Of a stretch of DNA of 64,000 bases, positions 1 through 34,422 are shown in pieces. The notes below the pieces were generated by a model, which saw only the letters and a program-made list of their open reading frames with translations, was not told the origin of the DNA and searched no databases. Origin of the DNA: an uncultured Actinomycetes bacterium (GTDB taxonomy: Bacteria; Actinomycetota; Thermoleophilia; RBG-16-64-13). The number at the start of each line of letters is the position of its first letter. Positions within the stretch are counted from its first letter, which is position 1. The stretch is taken from NCBI GenBank assembly GCA_963829545.1, contig CAWHIX010000008.1, positions 127,324 to 191,323 on the forward strand, in the 5' to 3' direction. The translations under genes and the position numbers were made by a program.

Positions 1-1988
1 GCGAGAACCCCGACCGCGGCCTGTTCCAGGGCAACGGTGCCTTCGGCGGCGGCGTGGTCCAGCCCAGCGGCGACGTGCTCAGGCTGGGCTTCAACCACGT
101 CATCGGCCTGGCCAAGGCCGAGATGGAGAAGATGAAGACCGAAGGGTTCGGGGAAATGCGCGCGAGCACCAATGCGCTGCGCAAGTGGTACCTGCTCAAG
201 TCCATCGTCATCATGTTCGAGGCCCTCATAACCTTCGCCAAGCGGCATGCCGCGCTGGCGCGCGAGCTGGCCGAGAAGACGACCGATCCGGTCCGCAAGG
301 CCGAACTCCTCAAGATCGCCGACGTGTGCGAGCGCGTACCGGCCGAGCCGCCGCGCGATTTCTGGGAGGCCGTCCAGTCGGTGCGCTTCATGCATCTGTC
401 GGCCTGGAAAGAAAGCTCCGACCGCGCCGAGGTTCCAGTCGGTCGTATCGACCAGTTCTGGTATCCCTACTACAAGGCCGACATCGAGAGCGGCAAGATC
501 ACGCGCGCCCAGGCCGCCGAACTGATCGGGGCGATGTGGCTCAAGATCCGCGAGGTCGAGAACCTGGTCACCATCAAGCGCGAGCACCGCGCCGCCCCGG
601 GCAGCCAGTTGCCGAACGTCACGCTGTGCGGGCGCGACAAAGACGGCAACGATCTCACCAACGAGCTTTCCTGGATCGTCCTCGAGGTCATGGCTCAGAT
701 CCACTTGTCCGAGCCGGCCGTCTACGTGCGCTACCACGAGGATCAGGACGAGGACTTCATCGTCCATGCCCTCAAGTGCAACCGTGAGTTCGGCGGCGGC
801 AACCCCGCGTTCCTCAACGACGAGCTGGGCACTCGGCGCTACCTCGATCGCGGCGTACCCATAGAGGACGCCTGCAACTGGAACGCCAGTGGCTGCCTCG
901 GCTACCACATGGAGTGCGCGGAGCACATGGCCGGCGCGTTCAACTTGGTGCAGACCAAGGTCATGGAGGTGACCCTGCACGATGGTTTCGACCCGCGCAC
1001 CGGCAAGCAGATCGGCCTGCATACGGGCGACCCGAGGAACTTCACCTCCATCGAGCAACTCCACGAAGCCTTCCTCAAGCAGGAGGACTACTTCGCGGAG
1101 AAGATGCGCGAGCACTACTTCATCTGGTGGACCACCGAGGCCGCCAACAGCCCCATGAGCGGGCTGCGTGCCGGCATGCTGTTCCGCGACTGCATCCCCG
1201 CCGGTATCGCCTCACGCGAGGGCGGCTGCCGCTATCCCGTGGGGAAGGCCTCGTGGGTGGGCGACAAGGGCATCTGTGACTGCGCCGACTACATGGCCGA
1301 CATCCAGTACCTGGTCTTTGACGAGAAGAAAGTCACCATGGCGCAACTGCTCGAGGCCATGGACGCCAACTGGGAAGGCCACGAGGACATCCGCCAGATG
1401 TGCCTGAAAGCTCCCAAGTACGGCAACGACGACGACTACGTCGACGACTGGTATGTCCGTCTGTCGCGGGACACCCAGGCGATCCTGCAGAGCCGTCCCG
1501 ACCCCATCACCGGTGAGAAGCCCATGCTGTTCAAGGGTGCCGCAGCCGGTCATGTGACCCAGGGCAAAGCCGTGGGCGCCATGCCCAACGGCCGCTTCGC
1601 AGGCACTCCCATCTACGACGGCGGCACCTCCGCCATGGCCGGTGGAGACGTCAGCGGCCCGACGGCCCTCATACTGTCCGCCACCAAGTACCCGACCGCC
1701 TACGAATGCGCCGGTGTGGCCCATAACATGAAGTTCTCCAAGGCGGTCCTCAATTCGCCTGAGAAGCTGCGCAAGATGGCGGCGCTCATCAAGACCTTCA
1801 ACAAGCGCGACGGATGGCACATCCAGTTCAACATCCACAGTGCCGCCGAGCTCATGGAGGCCCGCGAGAAGCCCGAGGCCCACAAAGACCTGCTCGTCCG
1901 TGTGGGCGGCTACAGTGCGTACTTCGTCGATCTGCCGCCCGAACTCCAGGAGGAGATCGTAGAGCGCACCATGCACGAAGTCGGGTAA
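1..1988 (+). CDS. Glycyl radical enzyme (GRE), C-terminal about 650 aa; the 5' end lies upstream of the window. It belongs to the PFL2 / eliminase-decarboxylase-like clade and the substrate is unknown.
   Basis: The reading frame is open back to base 1 (E-N-P-D-R-G...). The C-terminus RVGGYSAYFVDLPPELQEEIVERTMHEV carries the conserved glycyl-radical motif RVxGYSA(F/Y)F and the downstream ...Q.(D/E)II.RT.HE pattern of non-PFL GREs. A cognate activase gene follows immediately. Confidence 0.85.
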   Translation, partial: ENPDRGLFQGNGAFGGGVVQPSGDVLRLGFNHVIGLAKAEMEKMKTEGFGEMRASTNALRKWYLLKSIVIMFEALITFAKRHAALARELAEKTTDPVRKAELLKIADVCERVPAEPPRDFWEAVQSVRFMHLSAWKESSDRAEVPVGRIDQFWYPYYKADIESGKITRAQAAELIGAMWLKIREVENLVTIKREHRAAPGSQLPNVTLCGRDKDGNDLTNELSWIVLEVMAQIHLSEPAVYVRYHEDQDEDFIVHALKCNREFGGGNPAFLNDELGTRRYLDRGVPIEDACNWNASGCLGYHMECAEHMAGAFNLVQTKVMEVTLHDGFDPRTGKQIGLHTGDPRNFTSIEQLHEAFLKQEDYFAEKMREHYFIWWTTEAANSPMSGLRAGMLFRDCIPAGIASREGGCRYPVGKASWVGDKGICDCADYMADIQYLVFDEKKVTMAQLLEAMDANWEGHEDIRQMCLKAPKYGNDDDYVDDWYVRLSRDTQAILQSRPDPITGEKPMLFKGAAAGHVTQGKAVGAMPNGRFAGTPIYDGGTSAMAGGDVSGPTALILSATKYPTAYECAGVAHNMKFSKAVLNSPEKLRKMAALIKTFNKRDGWHIQFNIHSAAELMEAREKPEAHKDLLVRVGGYSAYFVDLPPELQEEIVERTMHEVG

Positions 1989-3021: not shown

Positions 3022-3456
3022 ATGGAGGACCATCTGGGCACTGTCATCACAGGGACCATCGGCGTCGACGCCCATGTGATAGGCACGAAGGTCATATCGA
3101 GGGCTCTGCGCGAAGCCGGCTTCAAAGTCGTAGAACTGGGCGCCCAGACACCGGCCGAGGAGTTCATCATGGCCGCCCAGGAGACTGCGGCGGACGCCAT
3201 GATGATCAGTTCTCTGTACGGCATGGCCGAGATGGATCTCGAGGGTTTCAGGGACAAGTGCACCGAGGCGGGTCTGGAAGATATCCTGCTCTACGTGGGC
3301 GGCATCCTGGGCGTGTCGCGGCGCAACTTCGCCGAGGACGAAGCCAAGTTCAAGGGGATGGGGTTCGATCGCGTATATCCGCCGGAGACCGATATCCGTG
3401 AGGGTATCGCCGATCTCAAGGCCGACCTCAGCCTTAAGCTTGCCGAGCGCCCCTAA
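3022..3456 (+). CDS. Glutamate mutase S (sigma) subunit-like B12-binding protein (MutS/GlmS type, 144 aa).
   Basis: DxHxxG motif (GVDAHVIGTKV). The conserved blocks SSLYGMAEMDLEGFRDKCTEAGL and FKGMGFDRVYPP match, from memory, the Clostridium glutamate mutase S protein ([23 protein letters not shown] / FKAMGFDRVYPP). Confidence 0.8.
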   Translation: MEDHLGTVITGTIGVDAHVIGTKVISRALREAGFKVVELGAQTPAEEFIMAAQETAADAMMISSLYGMAEMDLEGFRDKCTEAGLEDILLYVGGILGVSRRNFAEDEAKFKGMGFDRVYPPETDIREGIADLKADLSLKLAERP

Positions 3457-3494: not shown

Positions 3495-4937
3495 GTGAGC
3501 GACATCCGGCTCTTCGTCGATTTCGGCAGTACCTTCACCAAGCTGGTGGCCTTCGACCTGGAGGCCGAGGAACTTCTGGGCCGGGTACAGGTGCCGTCAA
3601 CGGTCGATCGAGATATCACCGTCGGCCTCGAAGAAGCCTTCTCTCTCCTGGCTGAGACGGTCCCCATCGGAGAGGCCGAGCGCCGGCGCACGGTGGCCTG
3701 CAGCAGCGCCGCCGGCGGGCTCAGAGTCGTGTGTGTCGGCCTGGTGCCGGAGTACACCACCGAAGCGGGTCGGAGGGCGGCTCTGGGGGCCGGAGCCAAG
3801 ATCGTCGGCTCCTACTCCTTCGAGTTGACCGAGGCCGAGCTGCGCGAGATCGGGGAGATAGCTCCGGATATCGTCCTGCTCACAGGGGGGACCGACGGCG
3901 GCAATCAGAAGGTGATCACGCACAACGCCGCCATGCTGGCACGGTCGGGGCCCGGCGTGACGAACATCATCGTGGCGGGTAACAAGTCGGCCTACGACGC
4001 CGTCGAGGCGCTGTTCTCCGGCTCCGGCAAGAACGTCATCTACACCTCCAACGTCATGCCCGAGATCGGCGTGCTCGAGGTCGATGCGGCCAACGGCAAG
4101 ATTCGCGACCTGTTCATCGCCCGCATCACCGAGGCCAAGGGCATCGGCCGGGCTCGGAGCATGATCGCCGACGTGATCATGCCCACGCCGGCGGCCGTCC
4201 TCGAGGCTGCGAAGCTGCTCGCCGACGGCACCGCCGGGCAGCCGGGTCTGGGCGAGTTGCTGCTGGTAGATGTCGGCGGGGCCACGACGGATGTGTACTC
4301 CGTCGCCAAAGGAACACCCGCAAACGGCTCGGTCCACGTCGTCGGCCTGCCCGAACCCTACGCGAAGCGAACGGTCGAGGGCGATCTCGGCCTGTTCCAC
4401 AATCTGGATACCTTGCAGGAGACCGTGGAACCGGACAACATGCCTCCGGGCTTCCCCGAGGCGGTTGCAGCCATGCGTGCCGAGAACAGCGTGCCCTCGG
4501 GAGTGGAGCAGGTCGCCTGCCACCTCTTGCTGACCAAGGCGGCCGTCCGCTCGGCGGTGAACCGTCACGCGGGTTCGCTCAAGTCTGTGGCGACTCCCAA
4601 CGGAGAGGTATGGCTGCAGCGGGGCAAGGACCTCACTGAGGTCGGCTGGCTGGTGGGCGCCGGGGGTCCCGTCTGCTTCTCGGCCGATCCCGTCCAGGTG
4701 CTCGAGGGCGCAGTGTTCGAGCCCGGCTTCCCCATGTTGCTCAAGCCCAAGGCGCCGCAGATGCTCCTCGACGCACACTACATTCTCTTTGCCCTGGGCC
4801 TCCTCGCCCAGAGCGAACCCTTGAAGGCCCTGGCGCTGATGCGGAGGTACGTGACGCCTCTGCAGTCTCCACGATCGCCGGCTCACGAGGAACGCACGAC
4901 CAGCCAGGAAAGGACGGAGGAACATGTCGGGGTCTGA
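3495..4937 (+). CDS. GlmL/MutL-like ATPase (glutamate mutase accessory protein family; actin/ASKHA fold).
   Basis: GTG start. N-terminus RLFVDFGSTFTKLVAFD is the phosphate-1 motif of the GlmL family. The protein is 480 aa and sits directly after the glmS-like gene, as in clostridial glmS-glmL-glmE operons. No glmE follows. Confidence 0.7.
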   Translation: MSDIRLFVDFGSTFTKLVAFDLEAEELLGRVQVPSTVDRDITVGLEEAFSLLAETVPIGEAERRRTVACSSAAGGLRVVCVGLVPEYTTEAGRRAALGAGAKIVGSYSFELTEAELREIGEIAPDIVLLTGGTDGGNQKVITHNAAMLARSGPGVTNIIVAGNKSAYDAVEALFSGSGKNVIYTSNVMPEIGVLEVDAANGKIRDLFIARITEAKGIGRARSMIADVIMPTPAAVLEAAKLLADGTAGQPGLGELLLVDVGGATTDVYSVAKGTPANGSVHVVGLPEPYAKRTVEGDLGLFHNLDTLQETVEPDNMPPGFPEAVAAMRAENSVPSGVEQVACHLLLTKAAVRSAVNRHAGSLKSVATPNGEVWLQRGKDLTEVGWLVGAGGPVCFSADPVQVLEGAVFEPGFPMLLKPKAPQMLLDAHYILFALGLLAQSEPLKALALMRRYVTPLQSPRSPAHEERTTSQERTEEHVGV

Positions 4938-5397
4938 TGCGCAGAAGTACTTTGTTAGTAGACCGGCCTACGAGATCGTCCCGGCCGTCGAGGTGGCGGG
5001 TCGCATACCCGCCATGACCCTGCTGAGCAACAACCTTATCCCCGGCGCCGACAACTACGTGGAGGCCGGCTGGATACTGGCCATGCCCGATCCGCCGACC
5101 CACATCTTCGAGCACGTGCACGACTACGACGAGATCGTCATGCACATCGGCACCGATCCCAACGATCCGGAGGATCTGGGGGCCGAGATCGAGTTCGTTG
5201 TGGACGGAGAGCCGCTCATACTCACCAAGACCTCTTCCGTGTTCGTGCCCAAGGGTGTGAAGCATGGTCCCTTGACTTGGAAGTCGTTCAGCAAGCCCCA
5301 CTTGGAGATGACGGTCATGCTCGGCGCCGGCAGTCTGGCCGAAGCCGATCCCGGTGGCCACATGGAGAAGATGGAACAGGGCGGTGTGGAGAAGTGA
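4924..5397 (+). CDS. Small metal-binding cupin, 157 aa, function unknown (family A, copy 1).
   Basis: Cupin motif 1 HVHDYDEIVMHIG (HxHxxxE) and motif 2 VPKGVKHGP (PxGxxH). It overlaps the end of the GlmL-like gene. Confidence 0.6.
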   Translation: MSGSDAQKYFVSRPAYEIVPAVEVAGRIPAMTLLSNNLIPGADNYVEAGWILAMPDPPTHIFEHVHDYDEIVMHIGTDPNDPEDLGAEIEFVVDGEPLILTKTSSVFVPKGVKHGPLTWKSFSKPHLEMTVMLGAGSLAEADPGGHMEKMEQGGVEK

Positions 5398-5876
5398 GCG
5401 AGTCGAAGTACGGCAAGTACATCCTCACCGAGGACCGCATGCCGCCCATGCCCGAGGCGATGGTCAAGGCCATGGATGATCAGGCGAAAGAGGGCAAGAC
5501 ACTCGACCGGACGATGCTGCTGGGCATCATGGACTCCATCGTGCCCGGGTGCTCGCTCTTCGCGGGCTGCGAGATCCTGTGGGGACTCCCCGGGGGCCAA
5601 CCGGTCGACATCGAGATACCTCACAGCCACGATTTCGACGAGATCATTGGGTTCGGCGGGACGAACCGGAACTACCCCCGGGAACTGGGCGGCGAGATCG
5701 AGTTCCACATGGGGGGCGAGACGCACACCATCACCAAGACCTGCCTCATCTTCGTGCCCAAGGGCGTGGAACACTGTCCGGTCACCCTCAAGCGTATCGA
5801 TACCCCCATCTTCATGTTCGAAGCGGCCAACGACCCCGACTACGTGAAGCAGTTCCAGCCTGAGACCGTAGAATGA
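5395..5876 (+). CDS. Small metal-binding cupin, paralogue of the preceding gene (family A, copy 2).
   Basis: GTG start overlapping the stop of the previous gene (GTGA). Motifs HSHDFDEIIGFGG and VPKGVEHCP. It aligns along its whole length with 4924..5397. Confidence 0.6.
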
Positions 5877-5886
5877 GGAGAGACTC

Positions 5887-6381
5887 ATGGCGATGACCTA
5901 CGACGAGTTCGCTGCCTGGATAGACGAGTACTTCGAGGCCTTCAACCTTTATGGCCAGGACCCGGCTGAGATCCACCGCATGGACAAGTACTTCTCCAAG
6001 GATGTGGTGTACAACCCCTACATCGCCTACGTGGGCAAGGTGACCGGCCGGGACAACTGGTACAAGGTACTCACGTCACACCCCTCCGGCATCGAGCGGT
6101 TGACCCCCGAGCACTTGGTCATCGATGAAGGGCGGCAGGTCTTCGTCGCCCAGATAAGGACCGACATAATCGACCGCGACACCCAAGAGCTACTGCTCAC
6201 CAAGCGCTATCTGTGCCGCTATCCCCTGGTGGAAGAGGACGGTGTCATGAAGATCGAGCGCCTCGACTTCTTCTGGGAGATCCTGCCGGCGGGCGCCCTG
6301 GAGATCGACGATGTCTTCGAACGTGACTGGAAACAGAACGCCGACGGACCGCAGCGCATGCTCGGAGGAGGAACAGAATGA
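5887..6381 (+). CDS. NTF2/SnoaL-like (ketosteroid-isomerase-fold) protein, copy 1.
   Basis: 164 aa. N-terminal pattern (D/E)xxxWxDEYFEAFN and overall hydrophobic patterning are typical of the SnoaL/NTF2-like superfamily. It is paralogous to the following ORF. Confidence 0.55.
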   Translation: MAMTYDEFAAWIDEYFEAFNLYGQDPAEIHRMDKYFSKDVVYNPYIAYVGKVTGRDNWYKVLTSHPSGIERLTPEHLVIDEGRQVFVAQIRTDIIDRDTQELLLTKRYLCRYPLVEEDGVMKIERLDFFWEILPAGALEIDDVFERDWKQNADGPQRMLGGGTE

Positions 6382-6839
6382 AACCGACGCGCGACGACAT
6401 CGTGAAGTGGATGAACGACTATTTCGCCGAGTACAACGCCAGCGCGCAGGACGCTGAGACCGTTCACGCCATGGACACGTACTTCGCCCCCGACCTCACC
6501 TTCATACCTTATATGAGCGCCTTCGGCGGGCCGGGAGCGGCGATCACCGGCAGTGAGAATTTCTACCGTACGCTGACCACTCATCCCGACGACTACGAGA
6601 GGTTCGAAGTACTCGACATCTTCGTCGACGAGGAGCGCCTGGTGTCGGTCGCGTTTCTGATCGCGCGGATCTTCAGTACGAAGACCGACGAACTGCTGGT
6701 GCAGAAGCACTACCTGCCTCTCTATGAACTGGCCATCAACGACGACGGCGAGCTGAAGATCAAGACCATCCGGTTCTTCTGGGAAGCCTCTCCCCCGGAG
6801 GTCGACGCAAACTACTCAGGCGCGGCGAAGGGACGATAG
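6378..6839 (+). CDS. NTF2/SnoaL-like protein, copy 2 (tandem paralogue).
   Basis: 153 aa. IVKWMNDYFAEYNA corresponds to FAAWIDEYFEAFNL in copy 1. The ATGA overlap indicates translational coupling. Confidence 0.55.
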   Translation: MKPTRDDIVKWMNDYFAEYNASAQDAETVHAMDTYFAPDLTFIPYMSAFGGPGAAITGSENFYRTLTTHPDDYERFEVLDIFVDEERLVSVAFLIARIFSTKTDELLVQKHYLPLYELAINDDGELKIKTIRFFWEASPPEVDANYSGAAKGR

Positions 6840-6843
6840 CAAG

Positions 6844-8937
6844 ATGACGTCTAAGTACGAGAAGCTCCTTGAGCCCGGCCGCATCGGGCCCGTGACCACC
6901 CGCAACCGCATCCTCAAAACCGGTGCGGGCATGCTCATGTGGCACGAGGACGACGTCCACATGCGGCCGGAGATGCTGGCCTTCTACGAGCGCATGGCGC
7001 GCGGGGGCACCGGTCTCATAATCGTCGAGTCGCCCACCATCGACTACCCCGCCGGGGCGCGCTGGCGCCAGCGCTACCGTATCGACGACGACCGCTTCAT
7101 CGAGGGGATGAAGGAACTGGTAGACGTCATGCACAAGCATGGCTGCCCGACCTTCATGCAGATGAACCACGATGGTCCCTGGCAGGTCAATCTGTCCCAC
7201 ATCGAGCCCAACCAGGTGTTCGCGGGGCCGCCCTTGGGCGCCTCGCCGGTCTCGGTGCCCTGCGTAGCCGATTTCCACAACGAGGTCCCGCGCGAGATCA
7301 CCATCGCGGAGATCGAAGGCCTGGTGGACAAGTTCGCCGCGGCGGCGGAGCGGGCCAAGAAGGCGGGCTTCGACGGCGTCGACGTCAACGCCGCCAGCAG
7401 CCATCTGCTCCACAACTTCCTGTCCCCGTTCTGGAATCGCCGCACCGATATCTACGGCGGCTCGAGCGAGAACCGCTCCCGCTTTCCCGGCCAGGTGATC
7501 ACCGAGATCAAGCGCCGCTGCGGCAAGGACTTCGCCTGCACCGTCATCATCAACGGGCTCGAGGTCGGCCAGGTCCTGGGCTTCGAAGACAGCCAGATGC
7601 TCACCCCGCAGATCGCTCGCGAGAACGCGCGTTGGCTCGAGAAGGCCGGGGCCGACGCCATCATGGTGAGAAGCCACTGGCTCGGCTACCACGTTCCCGG
7701 GTATCTCACCGACCTGCTCTTCTACCCCGAGCCGCCCATCCCGCTGGAGGACTTCCCCAAGGAGTACTACGCCAAGGAACTGGGGGCAGGTGCCAATACC
7801 CTGCTTGCCGCCGGTATCAAGAAAGAGGTCTCCATCCCGGTCACGGTCGTGGGCAGGCTCGACGCCGACATGGGCGAGAGGGTTCTTGAAGCGGGCATGG
7901 CCGACTTCATCGGCATGACCAGACGCCTCCACGCCGATCCGGACTACGTGAACAAGTTGCGCGAAGGCCGTCTGGACGACATCGCCCCGTGCACCGGCTG
8001 CGACAATTGCCTGGGTACCAAGCGTTGCAGGATCAACGCTCTGCTGGGCACGCCCTACACCGACATCGAGAAGGCCGACAAGAAGAAGAAGGTTCTCGTG
8101 ATCGGCGGCGGTCCGGGCGGTATGGAAGCCGCCCGTGTCTCGGCCCTTCGCGGCCACGACGTGACCCTGTACGAGAAGGCCCCCAAGCTCGGCGGGCTGC
8201 TTCCCATCGCCGCCATCGTCAAGGGTCCTCATCCCGAGGACGTGCCCCTGATCGCCGAATACCTCGAGGGCCAGATTCGCAAGCTGGGTGTGAAGGTGGT
8301 CACAGGCAAAGAGGCCGGCATGGCCACGGTCGAGCAGATCAAGCCGGACGTGGTCTTCATGGCCACCGGCGCCACGGCGACCATCCCGGCCATCAAGGGG
8401 ATCGACCGGTCGAACGTGGTGAGCGGCGCGGCCTTGCACAAGAAGCTCAAGATGGCCACACGCTTCGTGTCGCCCTACAGGCTTCGCTACCTTACGAAGT
8501 TCTACATGCCCATGGGCAAGAAGGTCGTCGTGATCGGCGGCGCGCTTCAGGGTTGCGAGCTGGCCGAGTTCTTGGTCAAGCGCGGCCGCACCGTGACCAT
8601 CGTCGAGCAGGCGGAGATGCTGGGCGACGGTATGATCGACGCCGTCCTTGGCAATCTCATGATCTGGTTCGAGAAGAAGGGCGTTCGCATGCTCTCCGGC
8701 GTGAAGGAGTACGTGGAGATCACCGACCGGGGTCTGACGCTGGTGACCGGCGACGGGATGACCGTGACCCTGGAGGCCGACACCTTCGTCTCCGCACTAC
8801 CGCTGACGTCGAACGCGGATCTTCTGCCGGCGCTGAAGGAGAAGGTGGCGGAGGTCTACCCCATCGGTGACGGGAATCAGCCCGGCCTCATCGCCGACGC
8901 CATCGGCACGGGCCTGCGCACGGCTCGGGAAGTGTGA
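6844..8937 (+). CDS. OYE-family NADH:flavin oxidoreductase / enoate reductase with a C-terminal FAD/NAD(P)-binding domain and a [4Fe-4S] motif (2-enoate reductase / 2,4-dienoyl-CoA reductase architecture).
   Basis: 697 aa. N-terminal OYE TIM-barrel segment. CTGCDNCLGTKRC cluster motif. Rossmann dinucleotide fold VLVIGGGPGGMEAAR...LYEK. Confidence 0.85.
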   Translation: MTSKYEKLLEPGRIGPVTTRNRILKTGAGMLMWHEDDVHMRPEMLAFYERMARGGTGLIIVESPTIDYPAGARWRQRYRIDDDRFIEGMKELVDVMHKHGCPTFMQMNHDGPWQVNLSHIEPNQVFAGPPLGASPVSVPCVADFHNEVPREITIAEIEGLVDKFAAAAERAKKAGFDGVDVNAASSHLLHNFLSPFWNRRTDIYGGSSENRSRFPGQVITEIKRRCGKDFACTVIINGLEVGQVLGFEDSQMLTPQIARENARWLEKAGADAIMVRSHWLGYHVPGYLTDLLFYPEPPIPLEDFPKEYYAKELGAGANTLLAAGIKKEVSIPVTVVGRLDADMGERVLEAGMADFIGMTRRLHADPDYVNKLREGRLDDIAPCTGCDNCLGTKRCRINALLGTPYTDIEKADKKKKVLVIGGGPGGMEAARVSALRGHDVTLYEKAPKLGGLLPIAAIVKGPHPEDVPLIAEYLEGQIRKLGVKVVTGKEAGMATVEQIKPDVVFMATGATATIPAIKGIDRSNVVSGAALHKKLKMATRFVSPYRLRYLTKFYMPMGKKVVVIGGALQGCELAEFLVKRGRTVTIVEQAEMLGDGMIDAVLGNLMIWFEKKGVRMLSGVKEYVEITDRGLTLVTGDGMTVTLEADTFVSALPLTSNADLLPALKEKVAEVYPIGDGNQPGLIADAIGTGLRTAREV

Positions 8938-8996
8938 GCATGGTCCACGCGGGCGATACCACGAGCGGAAGCGGCGCCAGGGCGCGGCACGGCTAC

Positions 8997-10859
8997 ATGG
9001 GGAAGCTGCTGTTCGTCGACCTGACGAACAGGACGTTTCACGAAGAGGAGCTGTCGGAGGATACGGCGCGCCACTTCGTGGGCGGCTACGGCATCGGCGC
9101 TCGCATAATCATGGAGCGCACCAAGCCGGGGATCGACCCCCTGGGCCCGGAGAACATCTTCGGGATCGGGACCGGTCCGCTCACCCTTTCCGGTGTCTAC
9201 TCCACCTGCCGCTTCTCCACGATGGGCAAATCGCCGCTGACCGGCTACTGGGGCGATGCCAACTGTGGGGGCGATTTCGCCAATGCCTTCAAGGCCTCCG
9301 GCTACGATCTCGTCTTCTTCTCGGGGAAGGCCCCGTATCCCGTCTATCTGCTCATCACCGATGGGAAGGTGGAGCTGAAGGACGCCCGTCACCTGTGGGG
9401 CAAGGACACCACGGTCACCGAGGAGCTCATCAGGCAGGAGAACGTCAACAAGAAGCTCAAGGTGGCCGTCATCGGCCAGGCGGGCGAACGTCTCAGCCGG
9501 ATCGCGGCCGTGATGAACGACCGGGGACGGGCCGCCGCGCGCTCGGGGCTGGGAGCGGTCATGGGCTCGAAGAACCTCAAAGCCGTGGCCTGTACGGGCA
9601 GCGTGCGGCCTGAGCTGGTGGACAAGCCCCGCATCCAGGCCCTCATGAAGGAGATGATCAGACAGACGAAGGAGACCCCCTCGGGCATGTTCTATGGCCT
9701 CAGCCACGGGGGTACGCCAGGCGCCATGGTAATGCACATGCACGACCACGACGTGCCCATCAAGAACTGGAGCGGCAACACCGTCGACGACTTCCCCGAG
9801 TCCAGGTGGGGCTCGGTCGCGCTCGACGGCATGCTCAAGTACATCAAGAAGAGCTACGCCTGCACGGGCTGCCCGGTGGCCTGCGGCTCGGAGCTCACGG
9901 TCGAGGAGGGCAAGTACCCGGTCCGCGACTCGCACAAGCCCGAGTACGAGACCCTGGCCGCCTTTGGGCCCATGTGTCTGAACGACAACATGGAATCGCT
10001 GATCTACCTGAACGAACTGTGCAACCTGCACGGCATGGACACCATCTCGGCGGGCGCCACTCTGGCCTTCGCCATCGACTGTTACGAGAACGGCATCCTC
10101 TCCAAAGCAGACACCGACGGCCTCGAGCTGACCTGGGGCAACAGCGACGCCCATGTGGCGGTGCTGGAGAAGATGTGCCGACGCGAGGGCATCGGCGACA
10201 TCTTGGCCGACGGGGCCAAATGGGCCGCGGAGAAGATCGGCGGGGGCTCGGAAAGCCTGGCCATGCACGCCGGCGGAGAGATGCTCGCCATGCACGATCC
10301 CCGCTGCTTCCCCGGCTGGGGGGCCACCTACATCTCCGATGCCACCCCGGGCAGACATACACGGGGAGGAACGGCCTTTCCCGAGCACGGCGGCGTGAAC
10401 GAGATCGTGTATGCGGGCCTGGGCGTGCCCTTCAAACTGGACCCCTACGATTCGACCGACAAGGGGAAGTACCATGCCCTGCTTGCCGGATGGCAGCATT
10501 GGGTGAACACTTCGGGTGCCTGTCTCTTCGGCGTCGACAGTATGCCTCTCGACTTCGTGGGCTGCATGCGCGCCATAACCGGTTGGGACCTCGACTACGA
10601 CGAGATCATCGAGACCGGTAACCGCATCACCACGCTCCTCCACGCCTTCAACCTACGGGAGGGCTTTCAGCCGGGCGACTTCAGGCTTCCGGAGAGGGCG
10701 AGGGGCAATCCTCCGCTGGAAGCAGGCGGTCTTGAGGGCGTGACCGTGGATTCCGAGGGTCTCAAGCGGCAGTTCTACGAAGCCATGGGTTTCGACCCGG
10801 CGACGGGGGCCATCGCTCCCGAGCGGATCGTCGCCCTGGGACTGGATGATGTGCTGTAG
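8997..10859 (+). CDS. Tungsten-type aldehyde:ferredoxin oxidoreductase (AOR family), copy 1.
   Basis: N-terminus YMGKLLFVDLTNRTF and internal AVMGSKNLKAV are typical of the AOR N-terminal domain. About 620 aa. Alternative starts GTG 8934 or ATG 8940 overlap the OYE stop. Confidence 0.85.
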   Translation: MGKLLFVDLTNRTFHEEELSEDTARHFVGGYGIGARIIMERTKPGIDPLGPENIFGIGTGPLTLSGVYSTCRFSTMGKSPLTGYWGDANCGGDFANAFKASGYDLVFFSGKAPYPVYLLITDGKVELKDARHLWGKDTTVTEELIRQENVNKKLKVAVIGQAGERLSRIAAVMNDRGRAAARSGLGAVMGSKNLKAVACTGSVRPELVDKPRIQALMKEMIRQTKETPSGMFYGLSHGGTPGAMVMHMHDHDVPIKNWSGNTVDDFPESRWGSVALDGMLKYIKKSYACTGCPVACGSELTVEEGKYPVRDSHKPEYETLAAFGPMCLNDNMESLIYLNELCNLHGMDTISAGATLAFAIDCYENGILSKADTDGLELTWGNSDAHVAVLEKMCRREGIGDILADGAKWAAEKIGGGSESLAMHAGGEMLAMHDPRCFPGWGATYISDATPGRHTRGGTAFPEHGGVNEIVYAGLGVPFKLDPYDSTDKGKYHALLAGWQHWVNTSGACLFGVDSMPLDFVGCMRAITGWDLDYDEIIETGNRITTLLHAFNLREGFQPGDFRLPERARGNPPLEAGGLEGVTVDSEGLKRQFYEAMGFDPATGAIAPERIVALGLDDVL

Positions 10860-10890
10860 TGCATACAACTCGACCATACGGAGCCGACTG

Positions 10891-11721
10891 ATGTATCTCG
10901 AGAACAGAGTGGCGATAGTGACCGGCGGAGCCAAGGGCATGGGCAGAGGCATCGCCCTCAAGTTCGCCGAGGAGGGAGCGGACGTGGTGGTCTGCGACCT
11001 GGACCTGCCGGGCGCGCAGAGCGTGGCCCGGGAGATCGAGGCCTTGGGCCGAAAAGGCCTGGCCTTCAGGACCGACATCACGAACAGCTCGGAGATCAAG
11101 GAGATGGTGGCCGGCACCCTCGAGGGGCTGGGTACCATCGATGTGCTGATCAACTGCGCCGGCGGGGTGGGGGGAACCCACGGTTCGGGCGCAACTGGGA
11201 CCATGAGCGAGGAAGAATGGGACAGGGTGCTCGCGATCAACCTCAAAGGCCCCTGGCTGGTGACCGAAGCCGTGCTGCCCACCATGAAAGAGAAGAAGTA
11301 CGGCAAGATAGTCTTCATCTCCTCTACGGGGGCCGTGTCCCCGGTGGTGTCGGTGCTTCACTACCATGCCGCCAAAGCCGGCGTGATCGGCCTCGCTCTG
11401 AACCTCGCTTTTGAGCTGGCACCACAGAACATTTGCGTGAACACGATCGTCCCGGGGCCGGTCGAGACTCCCTTCTGGGATGCGCTCATGCCTGCCGGCC
11501 CGGAGCGCGACACTTTCTTCGCGGCCGTCTCGAAGCACGAGGTACCGCTGGGCAGGATGGGACAACCGAAGGACATCGCCGGGGCCTGCCTCTTCCTCTC
11601 CTCGGAACTCTCCGACTACGTGACCGGGCAGACCATCTGCGTGGCAGGAGGCCAGCCCATGCTGTCCCAGCAAGCCACCTTCAACATCGAAGCCTATCTG
11701 AAAGATCGAGGCCTACTATGA
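10891..11721 (+). CDS. Short-chain dehydrogenase/reductase (SDR).
   Basis: RVAIVTGGAKGMGRGIA glycine-rich NAD(P) motif, YxxxK present, about 276 aa. Confidence 0.85.
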   Translation: MYLENRVAIVTGGAKGMGRGIALKFAEEGADVVVCDLDLPGAQSVAREIEALGRKGLAFRTDITNSSEIKEMVAGTLEGLGTIDVLINCAGGVGGTHGSGATGTMSEEEWDRVLAINLKGPWLVTEAVLPTMKEKKYGKIVFISSTGAVSPVVSVLHYHAAKAGVIGLALNLAFELAPQNICVNTIVPGPVETPFWDALMPAGPERDTFFAAVSKHEVPLGRMGQPKDIAGACLFLSSELSDYVTGQTICVAGGQPMLSQQATFNIEAYLKDRGLL

Positions 11722-12637: not shown

Positions 12638-14474
12638 ATGCCACAAGAGCCATATACGCTGCGCATCATCCGCGTCGATCTGAGCACCGGGGAAGTCAGC
12701 GAAGAACTGATCGACGGCGAAACGACCCGGCAGTACGTGGGGGGCACGGGCCTGGCCACCAAATACCTGTGGGAAGAAGTCCCGGCCGGTGTGGAATGGT
12801 CGGATCCCGAGAACCTGCTCACCTTCTTCACCGGCCCTCTGGCGGGAACCAGGGTCTCGGGCTCGGGGACCTTCTCGGTGACTACCCTGGGAGCGTGCAC
12901 GGGTATGTGCGGCACCGCACAGGCCAACGGGTTCCTCGGCGCCTTCATGCGCCAGAACGGCATCGACGGCGTGCTCGTGCAGGGCGCGGCGGAGAAGTGG
13001 ACCCGCCTTCACATCGAGGATGGCACGGTCCATCTTCTCGATGCGGAGCATCTGCTCGGGCAAGGACACCTGGGAGACCGAGGATGCCGTGAAGGAGGAG
13101 ACCGAAGGCCGGTGCAGCGTCTTCAGCATCGGGCCGGCTGGCGAGAACCTGGTCCGCTTCGCGGCCATCGTCGGCGACCGGGGCCACGTGGCGGCCCACA
13201 ACGGAGTGGGCGCCGTCATGGGCTCCAAGAAGCTCAAGTGCATCTCGGCCGTGAAGGGCGATCTGAAGCCTCGGGTGGACGACCCCGAGCGTCTCCTCGA
13301 GAACGCCAAGAAGCTGGGCGCGTTCACCAAGGAGGTCGACCAGGGCCTCGTCAACTTCGGCACCAACGCCGGGCTGGCGCCACTGGCTGCCATGGGCGCC
13401 GTGCCCATGCGGAACTACACCACCAACGTCTTTCCCGAGGACAACAAGTACGTGCCTGAGTACATGCGGGCGCATTTCAAAGCCAAGCCCTCGTCCTGCT
13501 GGGCCTGCGTCGTGGCGCACTGCCGCATCATGGAGGTCACCGAAGGCAGGTACGCCGGCTTTGTCGGTGAGGAACCTGAATACGAGGGGACGGCCGAGAT
13601 GGGTCCCCTCATCGGGATGACCGAGCCGGGCGAGACTGTCTACTTGTGCAACATGGTGGACCGGCTGGGCTTCGACATCAACGAGTCCGGATACCTGATC
13701 GCGTGGCTCATGGAATGCTACGAGAAGGGATACGTGACCAAAGACGATCTGGATGGCGTGGAGCTGAGGTGGGGCGACTCGGAAGCGGTCGACGTCATGC
13801 TGAAGAAGATCGCCTACCGCGAAGGCTGCGGGGACCTCTTCGCCGAGGGCACGAAACGGTCGGCCGAGAGGGTGGGGGGTCCAGCCCAGGACTGTTGTGT
13901 CTACACGCTCAAAGGGGCTACGCCCCGCGGCCATGACCACCGTGGCCACTGGATGGAGTTCATCGACACCTGCCTCTCCAACACGGGCACCATCGAGACC
14001 AGCGGCCACCTCTTCACGCCCCCCAACCTGGGCCTGGAACGGGTGAAGGATCGCTTCGACCCCATCGCCATGTCCACCATGAACGCCCTGCTCAACGGGG
14101 GCAGGAACGTGGAGGATTCGCTGGGCATCTGCCGCCTCTGTACGCCCAATCTGGCCCTCACCCTGGAATGCATCAACGCGGTCACGGGGTGGGACTGGAC
14201 GGTGGAGGACGCCAAGGAGATGGGGCTCCGCATCGTCAACCTCATGCGCATGTTCAACTTCCGGCACGGGCTGACCAAAGAGATGGAGGCGCCGTCGGTG
14301 CGCTACAGCTCCACGCCCGTCGATGGGCCGGCGGCGGGCATCGGCATCCGCGAGCACTGGGATGCCATCCGGGACAACTACTACGAACAGATGGGCTGGG
14401 ATGTGCGAGACGGGCCGTCCCCTGCCCGAGACGCTGCAGAAGTACGGCTTGGAAAAACTTTGTGTACCAAAATG
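12638..14474 (+). CDS. AOR-family aldehyde:ferredoxin oxidoreductase, copy 2, with two apparent frameshifts.
   Basis: Good GGAGG ribosome-binding site before the ATG at 12638. The frame switches at about 13060 (..HLLG | KDTWETEDAVKEETEG..) within a ggg run, and again at about 14410. The C-terminus in the shifted frame reads PETLQKYGLEKL, the canonical AOR ending. Confidence 0.75.
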
Positions 14475-14563
14475 ATTCTATGTGCTGAAATATAGTTTGC
14501 CGATGACCAACGACGAGCGACGGCAGCCGGCAGGCGGCCGTCGCCCATCCAGGGGGTGAACGT

Positions 14564-17173
14564 ATGTCGCAAGAGGCGAAGGATGGACAAGGGGAAAGGA
14601 CTGTCTACCGCGGGCTGAGTTTCATAGGCATCGCGGCCGATGCGAACAGCGTGCGCGTGGAGTGCAAGGATGGCAGGATCATCCGCATCCGGCCTCTTCA
14701 ATACGACGAGAAGTATCCCGGCCTGGAGCCGTGGAAGCTGGAGGCTCGGGGCAAGAGCTTCTCCCCCAAGATGCTGTCGGCCGTTCCGCCGCTCAGCCTC
14801 GGCTACAAGAACCGGGTCTATTCCCCCAACCGGGTGCTGTATCCGCTGAAGAGGGTGGATTGGGACCCGACGGGCGCCCCCGGGTCCACCGGCCCCGGCG
14901 GGCGCAACCCGCAGAACCGCGGTCTCAGCAAGTACGAGCGCATCTCCTGGGATGAAGCTCTCGACATCGTGGTGGCCGAGATCGAGAGGGTCAAAGAGAA
15001 GTACGGCATGGAGGCCATCCTCTCCCAGTCCGACGGGCACGCCGAGACGAAGACCATCCATTCCGCTCACGGCTGTCACCGCCGTCTCCTCAGGATGCTG
15101 GGCGGCTACACGCTCCAGACCCGCAACACCGACAGTTGGGAGGGCTGGTACTGGGGCGCCAAACACGTGTGGGGTTGCGAGCTCCTGGGACAGATGGTGC
15201 CGGTCGCCAACGTCATGTCGGACGTCTCCAACAACTGCGACGGCATCCTCTTCTGGGGCTGTGACCCTGAGACCACTCCCTGGGGCTTCAACGGGCAAAC
15301 GGCCAGTCGGCTGAGCTACTGGTGGACCGAGTTGGGCATCAAGCAGATCTACATCGCTCCCGACTGCAACTACGGCAACGCCGTCCACGCCGACAAATGG
15401 ATCCCGGTGCTGCCCAACACCGACGCCGCCCTCTACCTTGCCATCGCTCACGTGTGGTTGACTGAGGGCACCTACGATCAGGAGTACGTCGAGACCCATG
15501 CCGTGGGCTTCGAGAAGTTCCGGGCCTACGTCCTGGGCGAAGAGGACGGCGTTCCCAAGAACCCCAAGTGGGCCGCGCCCATCACGGGCGTGCCTTCCTA
15601 CACCATCAGGGCCCTGGCCCGCTACTGGGGCAAGAAGACCGTCTCCATAGCCATCGGCAACGGTGGCCCGGGCATCAGGGGCCCGTACTCCACCGAGCCG
15701 GCCCGCCTGCAGGTATTGCTTCTGGCCATGCAGGGCGTCGGCAAACCCGGGGTGCACCAGTTCAAGATGATGGAGTGGGGGCTCTACAACAAGAAGTCCA
15801 ACAACCCCCTGCCCCCGCCCAAGTACATACCCCTCATGATGGGGGCCAACCGCGGCTGGCTCTACACGGACACACCGCCGCAGTTCATCCCCAAGGACCT
15901 CATCCCCGACGCCATCCTCAAGCCGCCCCTGAGTTGGTACGGCACCACGCTCTCCCGGGACTCGGTCGATCAGCAGTTCATCAAATACACCTATCCGCGT
16001 GAGGGCGGCACCGAGATCCACATGATCTGGACCGACAGCCCCTCCTGGATGACGTGCTGGAACGACACCAATTCGTTCGTCCGGGCTGCGCGCGACCCCA
16101 AGATCGAGTTCGTGCTCGCTCAGCACCCCTGGATGGAGAACGACTGCCAGCTCGCCGACCTGGTGTTGCCCTCGCTCACCATGATGGAGGTCGACGACAT
16201 CGGCTGTGATTCGCTGAGCGCCATCTTCTACGTCGTGTTCCATGAGCCCCGGGCCATCGAACCCAGGGGCGAATCGAAGAGCGACTACGAGATCGTCTGC
16301 GCTATCGCCGAGCGCTTCGGGATATTGGAGGAGTACACAGGCGGCAACAGTGTCGACGACTGGATCAAGGTCGGATACGAGACCTGCGGCGTGGCCGGCG
16401 ACATCAGCTTCGAAGAGCTGAAGGAGAAGGGGTACTTCGTAGTCCCGCACGATACCGAAGTGCCGAACGACGGCAAGGCCGGCCTGCTCGACTTCTACGA
16501 GGACCCGGAGGGCCATCCTCTGACCACGCCCAGCGGCAAGATCGAGTTCTACTCCGAGCGGCTGGCCACGCACTTCCCCGACGATAACGAGCGGCCGCCC
16601 ATGCCGCGTTGGATCCCGGAGGGAGAGTCGCACCAGGAGAGTCGGGACGGGGAGCGGGGCAAGAAGTATCCGCTGCTCGTCATCAGCAACCATCCCAGGT
16701 GGCGCGTGCACTCCCAGCACGACGACATGACCTGGCTGCGCGAGATCCGTACCTGCAAGGTCAAGGGTCCGGACGGATACCAGTACGAGCCGCTCTGGAT
16801 CCACCCCTCCGACGCCGAGGCGCGTGGCATCGCCGACGGCGAGGTGGTCACCATCTACAACGAGAGAGGCGCGGTGCTGGCCGGGGCCTGGGTCACGGAG
16901 AGGATCAGGCCGGGAGCGGTCTACATCGATCACGGGGCCCGCTGGGACCCCATCGTGCCCGGGGAGTTGGACCGTGGCGGTGCCATCAACACCATCACTC
17001 CCCACAACATCACCTCCAAGAACGCCACGGGCATGGTGTGCAGCGGCTTCCTGGTGGAGGTGGAACGGGCCGATCTGGATGCTCTGAGGAGGGCGTATCC
17101 GGAAGCGTTCAAACGGCCGTACCGCGCCGACGCCGGTCTCCGCTTGGAGCGCGTGCTGGAAGGGGGTCGGTGA
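14564..17173 (+). CDS. Pyrogallol-phloroglucinol transhydroxylase-like molybdopterin enzyme, large (alpha) subunit, module 1 (DMSO-reductase superfamily, cytoplasmic).
   Basis: 869 aa with no Tat signal. Blocks WKLEARGKSFSP, YPLKRVDWDP, YERISWDEALDIVVAEIERVKEKYG and DSWEGWYWG match the Pelobacter AthL sequence as I recall it (KIEARGKTFTPP, YERISWDEATDIVVAEINRIKHAYG, DSWEGWHWG). Confidence 0.85.
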   Translation: MSQEAKDGQGERTVYRGLSFIGIAADANSVRVECKDGRIIRIRPLQYDEKYPGLEPWKLEARGKSFSPKMLSAVPPLSLGYKNRVYSPNRVLYPLKRVDWDPTGAPGSTGPGGRNPQNRGLSKYERISWDEALDIVVAEIERVKEKYGMEAILSQSDGHAETKTIHSAHGCHRRLLRMLGGYTLQTRNTDSWEGWYWGAKHVWGCELLGQMVPVANVMSDVSNNCDGILFWGCDPETTPWGFNGQTASRLSYWWTELGIKQIYIAPDCNYGNAVHADKWIPVLPNTDAALYLAIAHVWLTEGTYDQEYVETHAVGFEKFRAYVLGEEDGVPKNPKWAAPITGVPSYTIRALARYWGKKTVSIAIGNGGPGIRGPYSTEPARLQVLLLAMQGVGKPGVHQFKMMEWGLYNKKSNNPLPPPKYIPLMMGANRGWLYTDTPPQFIPKDLIPDAILKPPLSWYGTTLSRDSVDQQFIKYTYPREGGTEIHMIWTDSPSWMTCWNDTNSFVRAARDPKIEFVLAQHPWMENDCQLADLVLPSLTMMEVDDIGCDSLSAIFYVVFHEPRAIEPRGESKSDYEIVCAIAERFGILEEYTGGNSVDDWIKVGYETCGVAGDISFEELKEKGYFVVPHDTEVPNDGKAGLLDFYEDPEGHPLTTPSGKIEFYSERLATHFPDDNERPPMPRWIPEGESHQESRDGERGKKYPLLVISNHPRWRVHSQHDDMTWLREIRTCKVKGPDGYQYEPLWIHPSDAEARGIADGEVVTIYNERGAVLAGAWVTERIRPGAVYIDHGARWDPIVPGELDRGGAINTITPHNITSKNATGMVCSGFLVEVERADLDALRRAYPEAFKRPYRADAGLRLERVLEGGR

Positions 17174-17174
17174 C

Positions 17175-18006
17175 ATGGGCAAGGTGATGGTCATAGACAT
17201 CACGAAGTGCAACGGCTGCTACAACTGCCAGATAGCCTGCAAGGACGAGCACTGCGGCAACGACTGGTCGCCTATCGCCAAACCGCAGCCGCTCAGCGGC
17301 CAGTTCTGGCACAAGGTCACCGACCGGGTGCGCGGCCAGGTACCCAAGGTCAAGGTGGCCTACGAGCACACCATCTGCCAACACTGCGCCGATGCGCCAT
17401 GCATGACGGCCTGTCCCGAGAAGGCCATCTACAGGCGCTCTGACGGAGCCGTGGTCATCGATCCGCAGGTCTGCAAGGGCAACCACAGTTGCGTGGAGAG
17501 CCTGCCCCTACGAGGGCGTGGTGTACTTCAACGAGGACCTCAAGATCGCGCAGAAGTGCACGTTCTGCGCGCATCTCCTCGACAAGGGATGGACCCAGAC
17601 CCGCTGCTCGGAGGCCTGTCCCACCGGGGCCATCTCCTTCGGGGAAGAAGAGGAACTTGCAGAACTGATCGCCGGAGCGGAACTGCTCCGTCCCGATCTG
17701 GATACAGGTCCGCGCGTGTACTACATCGGCTTGCCCAAGACCTTCATCGGGGCGACCGTCTATGACCCCGAAGCAGACGAGGTGGTGGAGCAGGCCCTGG
17801 TGACTCTGGAGCGGCTGGGAGACGAGGCGCCGGTGACGGCGCATACCGACGAGTTCGGCGACTTCTGGGTCGACGGCCTGCAGACCGGCGTCTACAACGT
17901 ATCCGTGGCGAAGGATGGCTACGTCACCATCGACATGGCGGCGGTGACGGTCGACAAGGACCTGAATCTCGGCGACCTTCCCATGCAGCAAGAGCGGAGG
18001 CGGTGA
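17175..18006 (+). CDS. Transhydroxylase-like small (beta, ferredoxin-type) subunit, module 1, with one apparent frameshift near 17505.
   Basis: MVIDITKCNGCYNCQIACKDEH corresponds to BthL MVIDVAKCQDCNNCFMGCMDEH. The C-terminal part is in the second ORF (17518..18006) with KPRVYY...GDFW...DLNLGDL. Restoring ..VESCPYEGVVYF requires a 1-nt indel in a cc run. Confidence 0.8.
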
Positions 18007-18302
18007 ACGTGAGAGCCATAGTGAACATGATGTCCGGCAAGGTGGGCGGCGTTGTGGGCTGGCGTGCCCGTGAGATCCGCGTGGACAAGCCTACCGTGAC
18101 CGTTGAGGACATCTTCCGGTCGGTGACCCTGAAGGATAGCGACACGACCCTGTACGACCTGATCTGCGAGGAGCAGGGGCTCAAGCCGGAGTATGCGGTG
18201 TTCATCGGCGGCGAGTTCATGCGGGGCGCCTACGACTGGCAGCGCCCCATCATCGACTCCGAGCAGATCCACGTGGCCGACTGGCCAATGAGCGACTCCT
18301 AG
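18003..18302 (+). CDS. Small hypothetical protein (99 aa) between transhydroxylase modules. Possible MoaD/ThiS-like beta-grasp fold without the terminal Gly-Gly.
   Basis: GTG start overlapping the stop of the previous gene. The C-terminal segment YAVFIGGEFMRGAYDWQRPIIDSEQIHVADWPMSDS resembles the MoaD pattern VAVNGEFV...L.DGDEV.I.PPVSGG but ends in DS. The fold assignment is inferred. Confidence 0.45.
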   Translation: MNVRAIVNMMSGKVGGVVGWRAREIRVDKPTVTVEDIFRSVTLKDSDTTLYDLICEEQGLKPEYAVFIGGEFMRGAYDWQRPIIDSEQIHVADWPMSDS

Positions 18303-18318
18303 ACAAGGGGCGGACACG

Positions 18319-20907: not shown

Positions 20908-20909
20908 CC

Positions 20910-21954: not shown

Positions 21955-22025
21955 GCCTGCCAGTTTACTCGCTGTGGGCCGTGCATGTGGCAAAGAGTCC
22001 ACGTCTAGTGGAGGGTTAGACTAAC

Positions 22026-24311: not shown

Positions 24312-24352
24312 AGCGTTCTGGGGGCGAGAGCGCCGCAGAGAAGGAGAGGCTC

Positions 24353-27257: not shown

Positions 27258-27267
27258 AGGAGGAGAG

Positions 27268-28084: not shown

Positions 28085-28104
28085 GGGGCTGGGGAGCAGC
28101 TCAC

Positions 28105-32897: not shown

Positions 32898-32924
32898 GCG
32901 ACCAAGGAGGAGGGGAGGATGTCA

Positions 32925-34371: not shown

Positions 34372-34422
34372 GCGAACACGGCCCGGAAGCCGGGCGCCCG
34401 AGCGACGCCGGCAGGGAGCCGA

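Follow-up and report, generated by a model that had tools for sequence, protein, structure and literature searches.

A family of small paired cupins encoded beside ene-reductases and short-chain dehydrogenases in uncultured anaerobic bacteria

Background

MarH and a related non-heme-iron cupin epimerase/lyase (structures 6j4b and 7eqk) are small single-domain cupins with a histidine-rich metal site, and cupins of this type carry out metal-bound keto-acid enolisation. This is the kind of chemistry that we propose here for CupA and CupB, two small cupins encoded by adjacent genes in a stretch of 64,000 nucleotides (hereafter the window; G+C content 64.8%) of an uncultured Actinomycetes bacterium (assembly GCA_963829545.1, contig CAWHIX010000008.1, positions 127,324 to 191,323 of the forward strand). 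The family recurs at a second locus of the window, as a fused double cupin next to the single-copy CupE. Our proposal, to which we give a probability of roughly 0.55 from sequence and gene context, is that the cupin pair would be the metal-dependent, non-redox partner of the adjacent reductases and would act as an O2-independent isomerase or lyase on enolisable cyclic ketones. The MarH type differs from these cupins in several respects: it shares 19-24% identity with them and is invisible to a sequence profile, it has about 120 aa instead of 157-160, it lacks the N-terminal extension and the ADPGGH tail, it forms no two-class pair, and it serves secondary-metabolite biosynthesis in aerobic Streptomyces rather than catabolic operons of anaerobes.

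The bicupin isomerases BacB and AerE (3h7j, 5zbf) also contain two cupin domains per functional unit. In bacilysin biosynthesis BacB shifts a double bond in a cyclic enone-type intermediate, a metal-dependent isomerisation after which reductases take over. These enzymes are, however, biosynthetic and found in aerobic hosts, their identity to the cupins described here is 11-15% with no sequence-level relationship, and the domains that are fused in them are here usually separate genes of two classes. Sugar isomerases of the KdgF, KduI and FdtA type are likewise small cupins, which open or isomerise keto-sugar rings after glycoside cleavage, and GH3 glycosidase genes adjoin several of our cupin loci. 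In this case the identity is 8-13%, and the cupin neighbourhood is devoid of nucleotide-sugar or uronate genes. Moreover, FdtA and RmlC-type enzymes are metal-independent.

A further parallel, by function only, is anaerobic flavonoid cleavage by Eubacterium ramulus and Flavonifractor plautii, in which a small non-redox isomerase, chalcone isomerase (CHI), was proposed to act together with an FMN/FAD/FeS-type reductase, Fcr, as we propose for the cupins. Bacterial CHI is not a cupin; the likeness lies in the gene set of the Dehalococcoidales loci described below, where a GH3 glycosidase and an alpha/beta-hydrolase face an ene-reductase (ER), cupins and a short-chain dehydrogenase (SDR). Fcr of E. 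ramulus was first proposed as an enoate reductase working in concert with CHI, and can also work without it (PMC8398226). In gut Clostridia the series runs from deglycosylation through CHI, Fcr and phloretin hydrolase to an SDR phloroglucinol reductase, the C-C hydrolysis yielding the phloroglucinol on which the SDR then acts (PMC8398226, PMC10470551).

The cupin pair and its metal site

CupA and CupB are paralogues (BLASTP, 40% identity over 94 aa, E=1.7e-20) whose genes overlap in the tetranucleotide GTGA, the GTG start of CupB at 5394 overlapping the stop codon of CupA. CupB lies in the frame of an open reading frame (ORF) of 5277-5876, and its start could be fixed because residues 2-15 are conserved among homologues, being kept in 35 of them with Y5 and D13 invariant in the alignment. 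The metal-site motifs are H64-x-H66-x3-E70 and P109-x-G111-x2-H114 in CupA, and H76-x-H78-x3-E82 and P121-x-G123-x2-H126 in CupB. This bears out the preliminary description of the DNA, which had seen two adjacent, translationally coupled paralogues with intact HxHxxxE and PxGxxH motifs; its length of about 157 aa for both is exact for CupA, but CupB has 160 aa.

The four ligand residues are invariant in the alignments, those of CupA in 45 A-type and those of CupB in 36 B-type homologues (the two classes are defined below). Further residues of CupA, namely H74, H126, H146, W50 and W119, are near-invariant in the A-class, which also ends in an invariant ADPGGH; AlphaFold leaves this tail of CupA disordered. 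CupB has an N-terminal helix and no C-terminal histidine tail. Of the cysteines conserved in CupB-type proteins, C58 and C116 are almost invariant, and C127, the neighbour of ligand H126, is fully so.

Fold and family placement

AlphaFold 2 gave confident cupin models for both proteins (pLDDT 87.8 for CupA and 80.7 for CupB), each with the small double-stranded beta-helix barrel of the cupin superfamily and a canonical metal site. A structure prediction had been suggested earlier as a check, and on these models the proteins are certainly true cupins, the binding of a metal itself being predicted. The metallo-cupin motifs HxH(x)3-4E and PxG(x)2H are present in CupA, CupB and CupE and across the classes A, B, C and E.

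No solved or curated family is close to CupA or CupB. The closest structural matches share 8-24% identity at a query-normalised TM-score of about 0.5. The Pfam family Cupin_2 (PF07883) scored 17.2 bits for CupA, 19.4 for CupB and 18.6 for CupE, below its gathering threshold of 27.2, and these matches span only the C-terminal motif; the fused cupin had no Pfam match at all (E<=10). None of the 240 listed homologues of CupA and CupB carries a precomputed Pfam domain, and NCBIfam returned zero families at E<=10 for all four cupin proteins. A profile of 45 CupA homologues found nothing significant among all PDB sequences; its top match, anthocyanidin synthase (E about 0.3), was judged to be due to chance. 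At the sequence level the cupins match neither RmlC, mannose-6-phosphate isomerase nor any other characterised cupin. An identity as dihydrophloroglucinol cyclohydrolase was dropped, this enzyme belonging to the "cyclase" family and not to the cupins. In the literature we found no paper on this cupin family, so that the earlier statement that the family could not be placed still holds.

Cupin folds and metal sites of this type are familiar; the family itself is not, having no Pfam or NCBIfam model, structure, isolate or literature. What is new about it is the two-class pairing, the conserved disordered histidine tail and the fixed link to NCR/Fcr-type reductases in uncultured anaerobes.

Family size, classes and pairing

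In a set of 5.8 billion proteins CupA has 536 relatives, the best 120 of which are 44-97% identical to it (at least 63% for the single-domain ones), and CupB has 257, the best 120 being 68-88% identical. Every one of the best 120 relatives of CupA goes under "hypothetical" or an automatic cupin label of a generic kind, and Pfam domains are absent from all of them. A joint profile matched 1258 clusters (50% identity) with an E-value cut-off of 1e-3, and 745 when this was tightened to 1e-10; 20 cluster representatives that were looked up are all metagenomic, none coming from an isolate and none being functionally named, their labels being "hypothetical" or automatic and cupin-like. In GTDB, taken with one genome per species, 185 stretches encode relatives. 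The best 80 of these 185 are all from metagenome-assembled genomes (MAGs) of Actinomycetota (Gaiellales, Thermoleophilia), Dehalococcoidales, Acidobacteriota, Desulfobacterales and Anaerolineae. The family is confined to uncultured anaerobes of peat, soil, aquifers and digesters. Its conservation is unusually high, with 63-88% identity between the members from Actinomycetota, Dehalococcoidales, Acidobacteriota and Desulfobacterales.

To define classes, 192 cupin domains from 84 related loci (numbered with the prefix L below) were clustered with the five of the window. The A-class holds 91 domains including CupA, and the metal ligands are kept in 90-91 of them. The B-class has no tail and carries aromatic or aliphatic residues where the A-class has H74 and H126; it comprises the sub-groups B (34 domains, with CupB), C (45, the partner found in Dehalococcoidales) and E (8, with CupE), with the ligands kept in 34/34, 44-45/45 and 8/8 domains, respectively.

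In 63 of the 84 loci a B-class gene comes directly after an A-class gene in the same orientation; the start and stop codons overlap in 34 of these pairs, and 1-30 nt separate the genes in another 21 (55 together). Both loci of the window conform to this definition, the first by its GTGA overlap and the second by a gap of 15 nt. Two-domain fusions account for 76 of the 150 top cluster representatives, and their prevalence speaks for two paired cupin domains as the working unit. Most are fusions within a class (A-A, E-E, B-B); the mixed A/B fusions, few and of low identity, are weak Rosetta-stone evidence for the pairing of A with B. The divergence of A-class cupin, partner and ER is correlated (mirror-tree, r = 0.72-0.89). 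Among small bacterial cupins, an obligate pair of two classes in which one site looks catalytic and the other is divergent would be unusual.

The second cupin locus

It had been noted before that the family recurs 27 kb downstream as a fused double cupin plus a single copy. This is the case, with the start of the fused gene at 32924 instead of 32925 and with a frameshift in each of the two genes. The frame changes were placed by tblastn with the intact orthologues from two other MAGs (L001 and L011); the uncorrected ORF of the fused cupin continues in the wrong frame to 33946, whereas the true C-terminus is at 33872, the stop codon lying 15 nt ahead of the CupE start.

All five domains of the window are mutually significant paralogues (BLASTP, E from 1e-11 to 4e-36). 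They are thus of one family, as claimed previously, but they are not equivalent, falling into two classes and including one domain that has lost its metal ligands. The metal site is complete in three of the five (CupA, CupB and CupE). At the four ligand positions the N-terminal half of the fusion (Dn) has Q/L/Q/Y, so that the ligands are lost and the metallo-cupin motifs absent, and the C-terminal half (Dc) has H/N/E/H, with three of the four ligands kept and the motifs partly present. Each half forms its own small group in the domain clustering. These degenerate patterns are common to the orthologues in L001-L003 and L011, and because other MAGs carry the same pattern we do not regard it as decay; judging from these orthologues, the fusion of a pseudo-cupin with a cupin is a stable, established architecture.

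The frameshifts raise the possibility that the fused cupin and CupE are a decaying pseudogene copy and that the first pair alone is functional, a doubtful though by no means negligible explanation that is compatible with the other readings of the cupins. At least 11 frameshifts fall in 11.7-36.8 kb, in an AOR gene, a beta subunit gene, two molybdenum (Mo) enzyme alpha subunit genes and, at the second locus, ER2, the fused cupin, CupE, SDR2 and the URO-D-like gene (Table 1). At least six frameshifts lie in 30.8-36.8 kb, against none in 0-11.7 kb. The cluster reflects either uneven assembly quality or partial pseudogenisation. However, the aligned segments contain no in-frame stops and are 57-64% identical to the intact orthologues of L001 and L011, which share the ligand pattern of Dn and Dc. 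Moreover, similarly fragmented ORFs are found in related long-read MAGs (L005, L008, L015, L061), which suggests assembly indels.

Gene neighbourhood

The first locus begins with genes for a glycyl radical enzyme (GRE), its activase, a GlmS-type B12-binding subunit and GlmL, and continues after CupA and CupB with two NTF2/SnoaL-like genes, ER1, an AOR, an SDR, a second AOR and five pyrogallol-hydroxytransferase-like Mo enzymes. At the second locus the order is ER2, fused cupin, CupE, SDR2, a URO-D-like methyltransferase, a Zn-ADH, an HpcH aldolase and a metallo-beta-lactamase-fold protein. The positions of all these features that bear on the cupins, and of other genes discussed, are given in Table 1.

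Table 1. Location of the cupin genes and of other genes of the window.
Feature	Position	Strand	Remarks
GRE	54-1988		cut by the window edge
GlmS-like B12-binding subunit	3022-3456	+	
GlmL/MutL reactivase	3495-4937	+	stop overlaps CupA start by 14 nt
CupA	4924-5397	+	A-class cupin; ATG start, GGAGGA 5 nt upstream
CupB	5394-5876	+	B-class cupin; GTG start
NTF2/SnoaL-like gene, first	5887-6381	+	164 aa; between CupB and ER1
NTF2/SnoaL-like gene, second	6378-6839	+	153 aa; 4-nt overlap with the first
ER1, ene-reductase	6844-8937	+	OYE FMN domain, CxxCxxC...C [4Fe-4S] motif, FAD/NAD(P) domain (Pfam)
AOR paralogue	8934-10859		
SDR1	10846-11721	+	short-chain dehydrogenase (Pfam); best PDB match BbsD, E=1.6e-51
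AOR paralogue	13020-14495		truncated, frameshifted
Array of five Mo enzyme alpha subunits	14564-30400		pyrogallol-hydroxytransferase-like
Beta subunit	17518		frameshifted
Mo alpha subunits	24116-27123, 27595-30666		frameshifted
ER2, second ene-reductase	30849-32897	+	directly 5' of fused cupin; at least 2 frameshifts
Fused double A-class cupin (Dn~Dc)	32924-33872	+	ATG start; 1-nt frameshift near 33810
CupE	33888-34371	+	single copy, B-class, complete HHEH site; 1-nt frameshift near 34228
SDR2	34422-35227	+	directly 3' of CupE; frameshift near 34685
AOR paralogue	43270-45069		
Saccharopine-dehydrogenase-like and class-III aminotransferase region	47276-52566		
Class-III aminotransferase genes/fragments	49212-49892, 50217-51218, 51256-52566	minus	

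Neighbours of the cupins were counted in the 84 loci: an SDR is present in 51, an ER in 39, NTF2-like genes in 18, a B12-binding subunit with MutL in 16, an AOR in 16, a URO-D-like gene in 13 and a Mo enzyme alpha subunit in 11. The neighbourhood is far from random; it is the ene-reductase and the SDRs, rather than the Mo enzymes, that are conserved as partners of the cupins. The preliminary description had proposed neighbourhood statistics as a check and had named a random distribution, or a match to a characterised cupin, as what would speak against its view of the family; with A followed by B in 63 loci and with these counts of ER and SDR, the distribution is strongly non-random, and no such match was found. 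Its stress on a redox/Mo-enzyme cluster needs correcting in respect of the Mo enzymes, which adjoin only 11 loci.

The nearest solved structure to ER1 is the dearomatising 2-naphthoyl-CoA reductase (6qkg, E=2e-61), and its best NCBIfam matches, which are sub-threshold, include BilR (bilirubin reductase) and BaiCD. All three of these enzymes reduce carbonyl-conjugated C=C bonds of ring systems. SDR1 is nearest to BbsD and to FabG-type enzymes. The NTF2/SnoaL-like pair gave nothing above threshold in Pfam or NCBIfam, nor did the first gene give anything in a PDB sequence search. This pair travels with CupA and CupB in the Actinomycetota loci and in L001-L003, and represents a second unplaced family of the operon.

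About 12 Actinomycetota MAGs share the order GRE, activase, GlmS, GlmL, A, B, NTF2, NTF2, ER, AOR, SDR, SDR, AOR. In L001-L003 and L011 both arrangements of the window (A, B, NTF2, SDR and fused cupin, E, SDR) occur beside an IclR regulator, in L002 additionally with a Liv-type ABC transporter. The minimal operon, found in Dehalococcoidales, is ER-(B)-A-C with divergent genes for the GH3 glycosidase and the alpha/beta-hydrolase, and an SDR often follows it. In three Dehalococcoidales loci (L004, L085, L088) a heliorhodopsin gene is found within a few kb of this ER-cupin operon, and in L004 and L088 the operon is flanked by glyoxalase-fold genes.

This minimal operon, in which the cupins directly adjoin the ER, raises the question whether they could lack catalytic activity and assist the ene-reductase, or some other enzyme of the cluster, as accessory subunits or by presenting its substrate, with a metal that would be structural or ligand-binding only. 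Such a role would agree with the divergence correlated with that of the ER, with the very high conservation, typical of multi-interface proteins, and with the metal-less pseudo-cupin half of the fusion. We nevertheless consider it rather unlikely, given that the four ligands and the pocket histidines are near-invariant, as catalysis would predict, and that many cupin pairs occur with SDRs but with no ER within 10 kb (L001-L003, L040, L042, L063-L067).

The cupins are surrounded by markers of oxygen-sensitive metabolism, namely the GRE, the tungsten-type AOR and the B12 module. This bears on an O2-dependent activity, in which the cupins would cleave phenolic rings at trace oxygen in the manner of quercetinase. 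Quercetinase is a bicupin whose 3His-1Glu site binds the keto-enol group of flavonols, acireductone dioxygenases have such a site as well, and the automatic JGI label of a few members reads "quercetin dioxygenase-like cupin family protein". Quercetinase, however, requires O2, whereas our operons hold the oxygen-sensitive GRE with its activase, the AOR and a B12 mutase module, and the hosts are Dehalococcoidales, Desulfobacterales and Actinomycetota MAGs from anaerobic digesters. In addition, the cupins have no Pfam, NCBIfam or PDB sequence match to quercetin 2,3-dioxygenase or other dioxygenase families. We find this activity very improbable.

The B12 module and the glycyl radical enzyme

GlmS and GlmL pass the NCBIfam equivalog cut-offs and are 55-68% identical to their Dehalococcoidales orthologues, upstream of which MutE is encoded. 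In contrast, GlmE/MutE (PF06368) is present neither in the 64-kb window nor within 10 kb in about 12 Actinomycetota MAGs (L005-L017, L061), where the GRE and its activase occupy the place that MutE has in Dehalococcoidales. An Acidobacteria locus encodes a MutE::B12 fusion between a GRE activase and a CupB-type gene. It may be that the Actinomycetota encode MutE at another genomic site or that their B12 subunit works with a different partner.

That partner could be the cupin pair itself, which would then replace GlmE as the substrate-binding or catalytic component of the orphan module and define a B12-dependent enzyme on a cupin scaffold. The GlmS and GlmL scores, the lack of GlmE nearby and the translational contiguity of GlmL with CupA (Table 1) are in keeping with this, as are the B12/MutL modules found near cupins in Dehalococcoidales and Acidobacteria. 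In these two groups, though, a normal MutE accompanies the module, no B12 module is found in the vicinity of the cupins at 68 of the 84 loci, the Actinomycetota GlmE could sit at a distance, and we know of no cupin that binds a B12 subunit. The idea is, in our opinion, a very long shot.

The GRE is about equidistant from all characterised GREs (E from 8.8e-114 to 3.2e-106 for the eight best solved structures, which include the benzylsuccinate synthase alpha subunit, CutC, isethionate lyase, HypD and glycerol dehydratase), and it scores below every NCBIfam equivalog cut-off; for these reasons it gives no clue to the substrate, and its sequence probably represents a new GRE specificity. The full-length gene is found in L012 at 4509-7064. 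In L086, a related operon from Acidobacteria, the GRE is accompanied by two NAD-type aldehyde dehydrogenases and an Fe-ADH instead of the AORs, an indication that it forms an aldehyde.

Proposed function of the cupin pair

Returning to the cupin pair as the metal-dependent partner of the reductases, we suggest that an A-class cupin, with its 3His-1Glu site, extra histidines and flexible ADPGGH tail, and a B-class cupin, with its 3His-1Glu site, aromatic residues and cysteines, would work as a pair, possibly as a (pseudo)dimeric, bicupin-like hetero-oligomer. The cyclic substrate would be bound through its keto, enol or alpha-hydroxyketone group by a divalent metal (Fe2+, Mn2+, Ni2+ or Zn2+) serving as Lewis acid; a conserved histidine of the A-class (H74 or H126) might shuttle the proton. 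The net reaction would be an isomerisation, epimerisation or tautomerisation independent of O2, or a ring opening by beta-elimination/retro-Michael reaction, by which the cupin step could prepare or process the substrate of the neighbouring ene-reductase and SDR. The role suggested in the preliminary description, as isomerase, decarboxylase or ring-modifying enzyme, is likewise putative. The best structural neighbours of the cupins (MarH/7eqk, DddK, BacB/AerE and FdtA) perform non-redox enolate-type chemistry, which is compatible with the proposal, the modelled resemblance being too distant to serve as proof.

The pathway concerned is probably the anaerobic catabolism of plant-derived phenolic or alicyclic compounds. 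By analogy with gut Clostridia, one could imagine a flavonoid-like version in which the cupins open the C-ring in place of chalcone isomerase, for an Fcr-like reductase. The steps would be deglycosylation by GH3, opening of the C-ring by the cupins, ene-reductase, C-C hydrolase and SDR, an order into which the GH3 and hydrolase / ER, cupins and SDR set of Dehalococcoidales fits; the window also holds O-demethylase-like and pyrogallol-transhydroxylase-like genes. We hold this specific version to be unlikely, if worth bearing in mind.

Several points weigh against the proposed function. Phloretin hydrolase and chalcone isomerase have folds unrelated to the cupins, and the flavonoid lead is a circumstantial one drawn from gene content. 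Metal binding, oligomeric state and substrate are all features that we infer. The type of reaction cannot be read from the structural matches because these are generic (12-24% identity, TM-score about 0.5), and the correlated divergence of cupins and ER is equally explained by co-inheritance of the operon. Since many loci have no ER nearby (L001-L003 for example), the cupins are not tied to one enzyme, and in about 20 loci an A-class gene occurs with no detected partner. The N-terminal half of the fusion having no metal site, at least some of the domains would be structural, and the whole second locus may be non-functional should its frameshifts be real.

The family marks a recurrent operon of ene-reductase, SDR, NTF2-like, AOR, glycyl-radical, B12 and O-demethylase-like genes, and this operon has the look of a route, as yet undescribed, by which anaerobes use plant-derived compounds. 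Such a route bears on carbon preservation in anoxic soils and on the "enzyme latch" debate (PMC10470551, PMC8084988). If the cupin step could be assigned, it would provide a marker gene and a testable enzyme for the route. The cupin family is therefore a solid and tractable lead into an undescribed anaerobic pathway, the mechanism itself being unsurprising.

Other genes of the window

No Rfam family attains its gathering score at any place in the window; although B12 and Mo/W enzymes are encoded, this holds for the cobalamin and Moco riboswitches too. Three AOR paralogues are present. The five tandem pyrogallol-hydroxytransferase-like molybdopterin alpha subunits form an unusually dense array of paralogues; four of them have an AhtL-like first domain, and 4Fe-4S/CarboxypepD_reg beta subunits are encoded alongside. 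Further downstream, a saccharopine-dehydrogenase-like gene and three class-III aminotransferase genes or fragments, some apparently truncated, are unrelated to the cupins.

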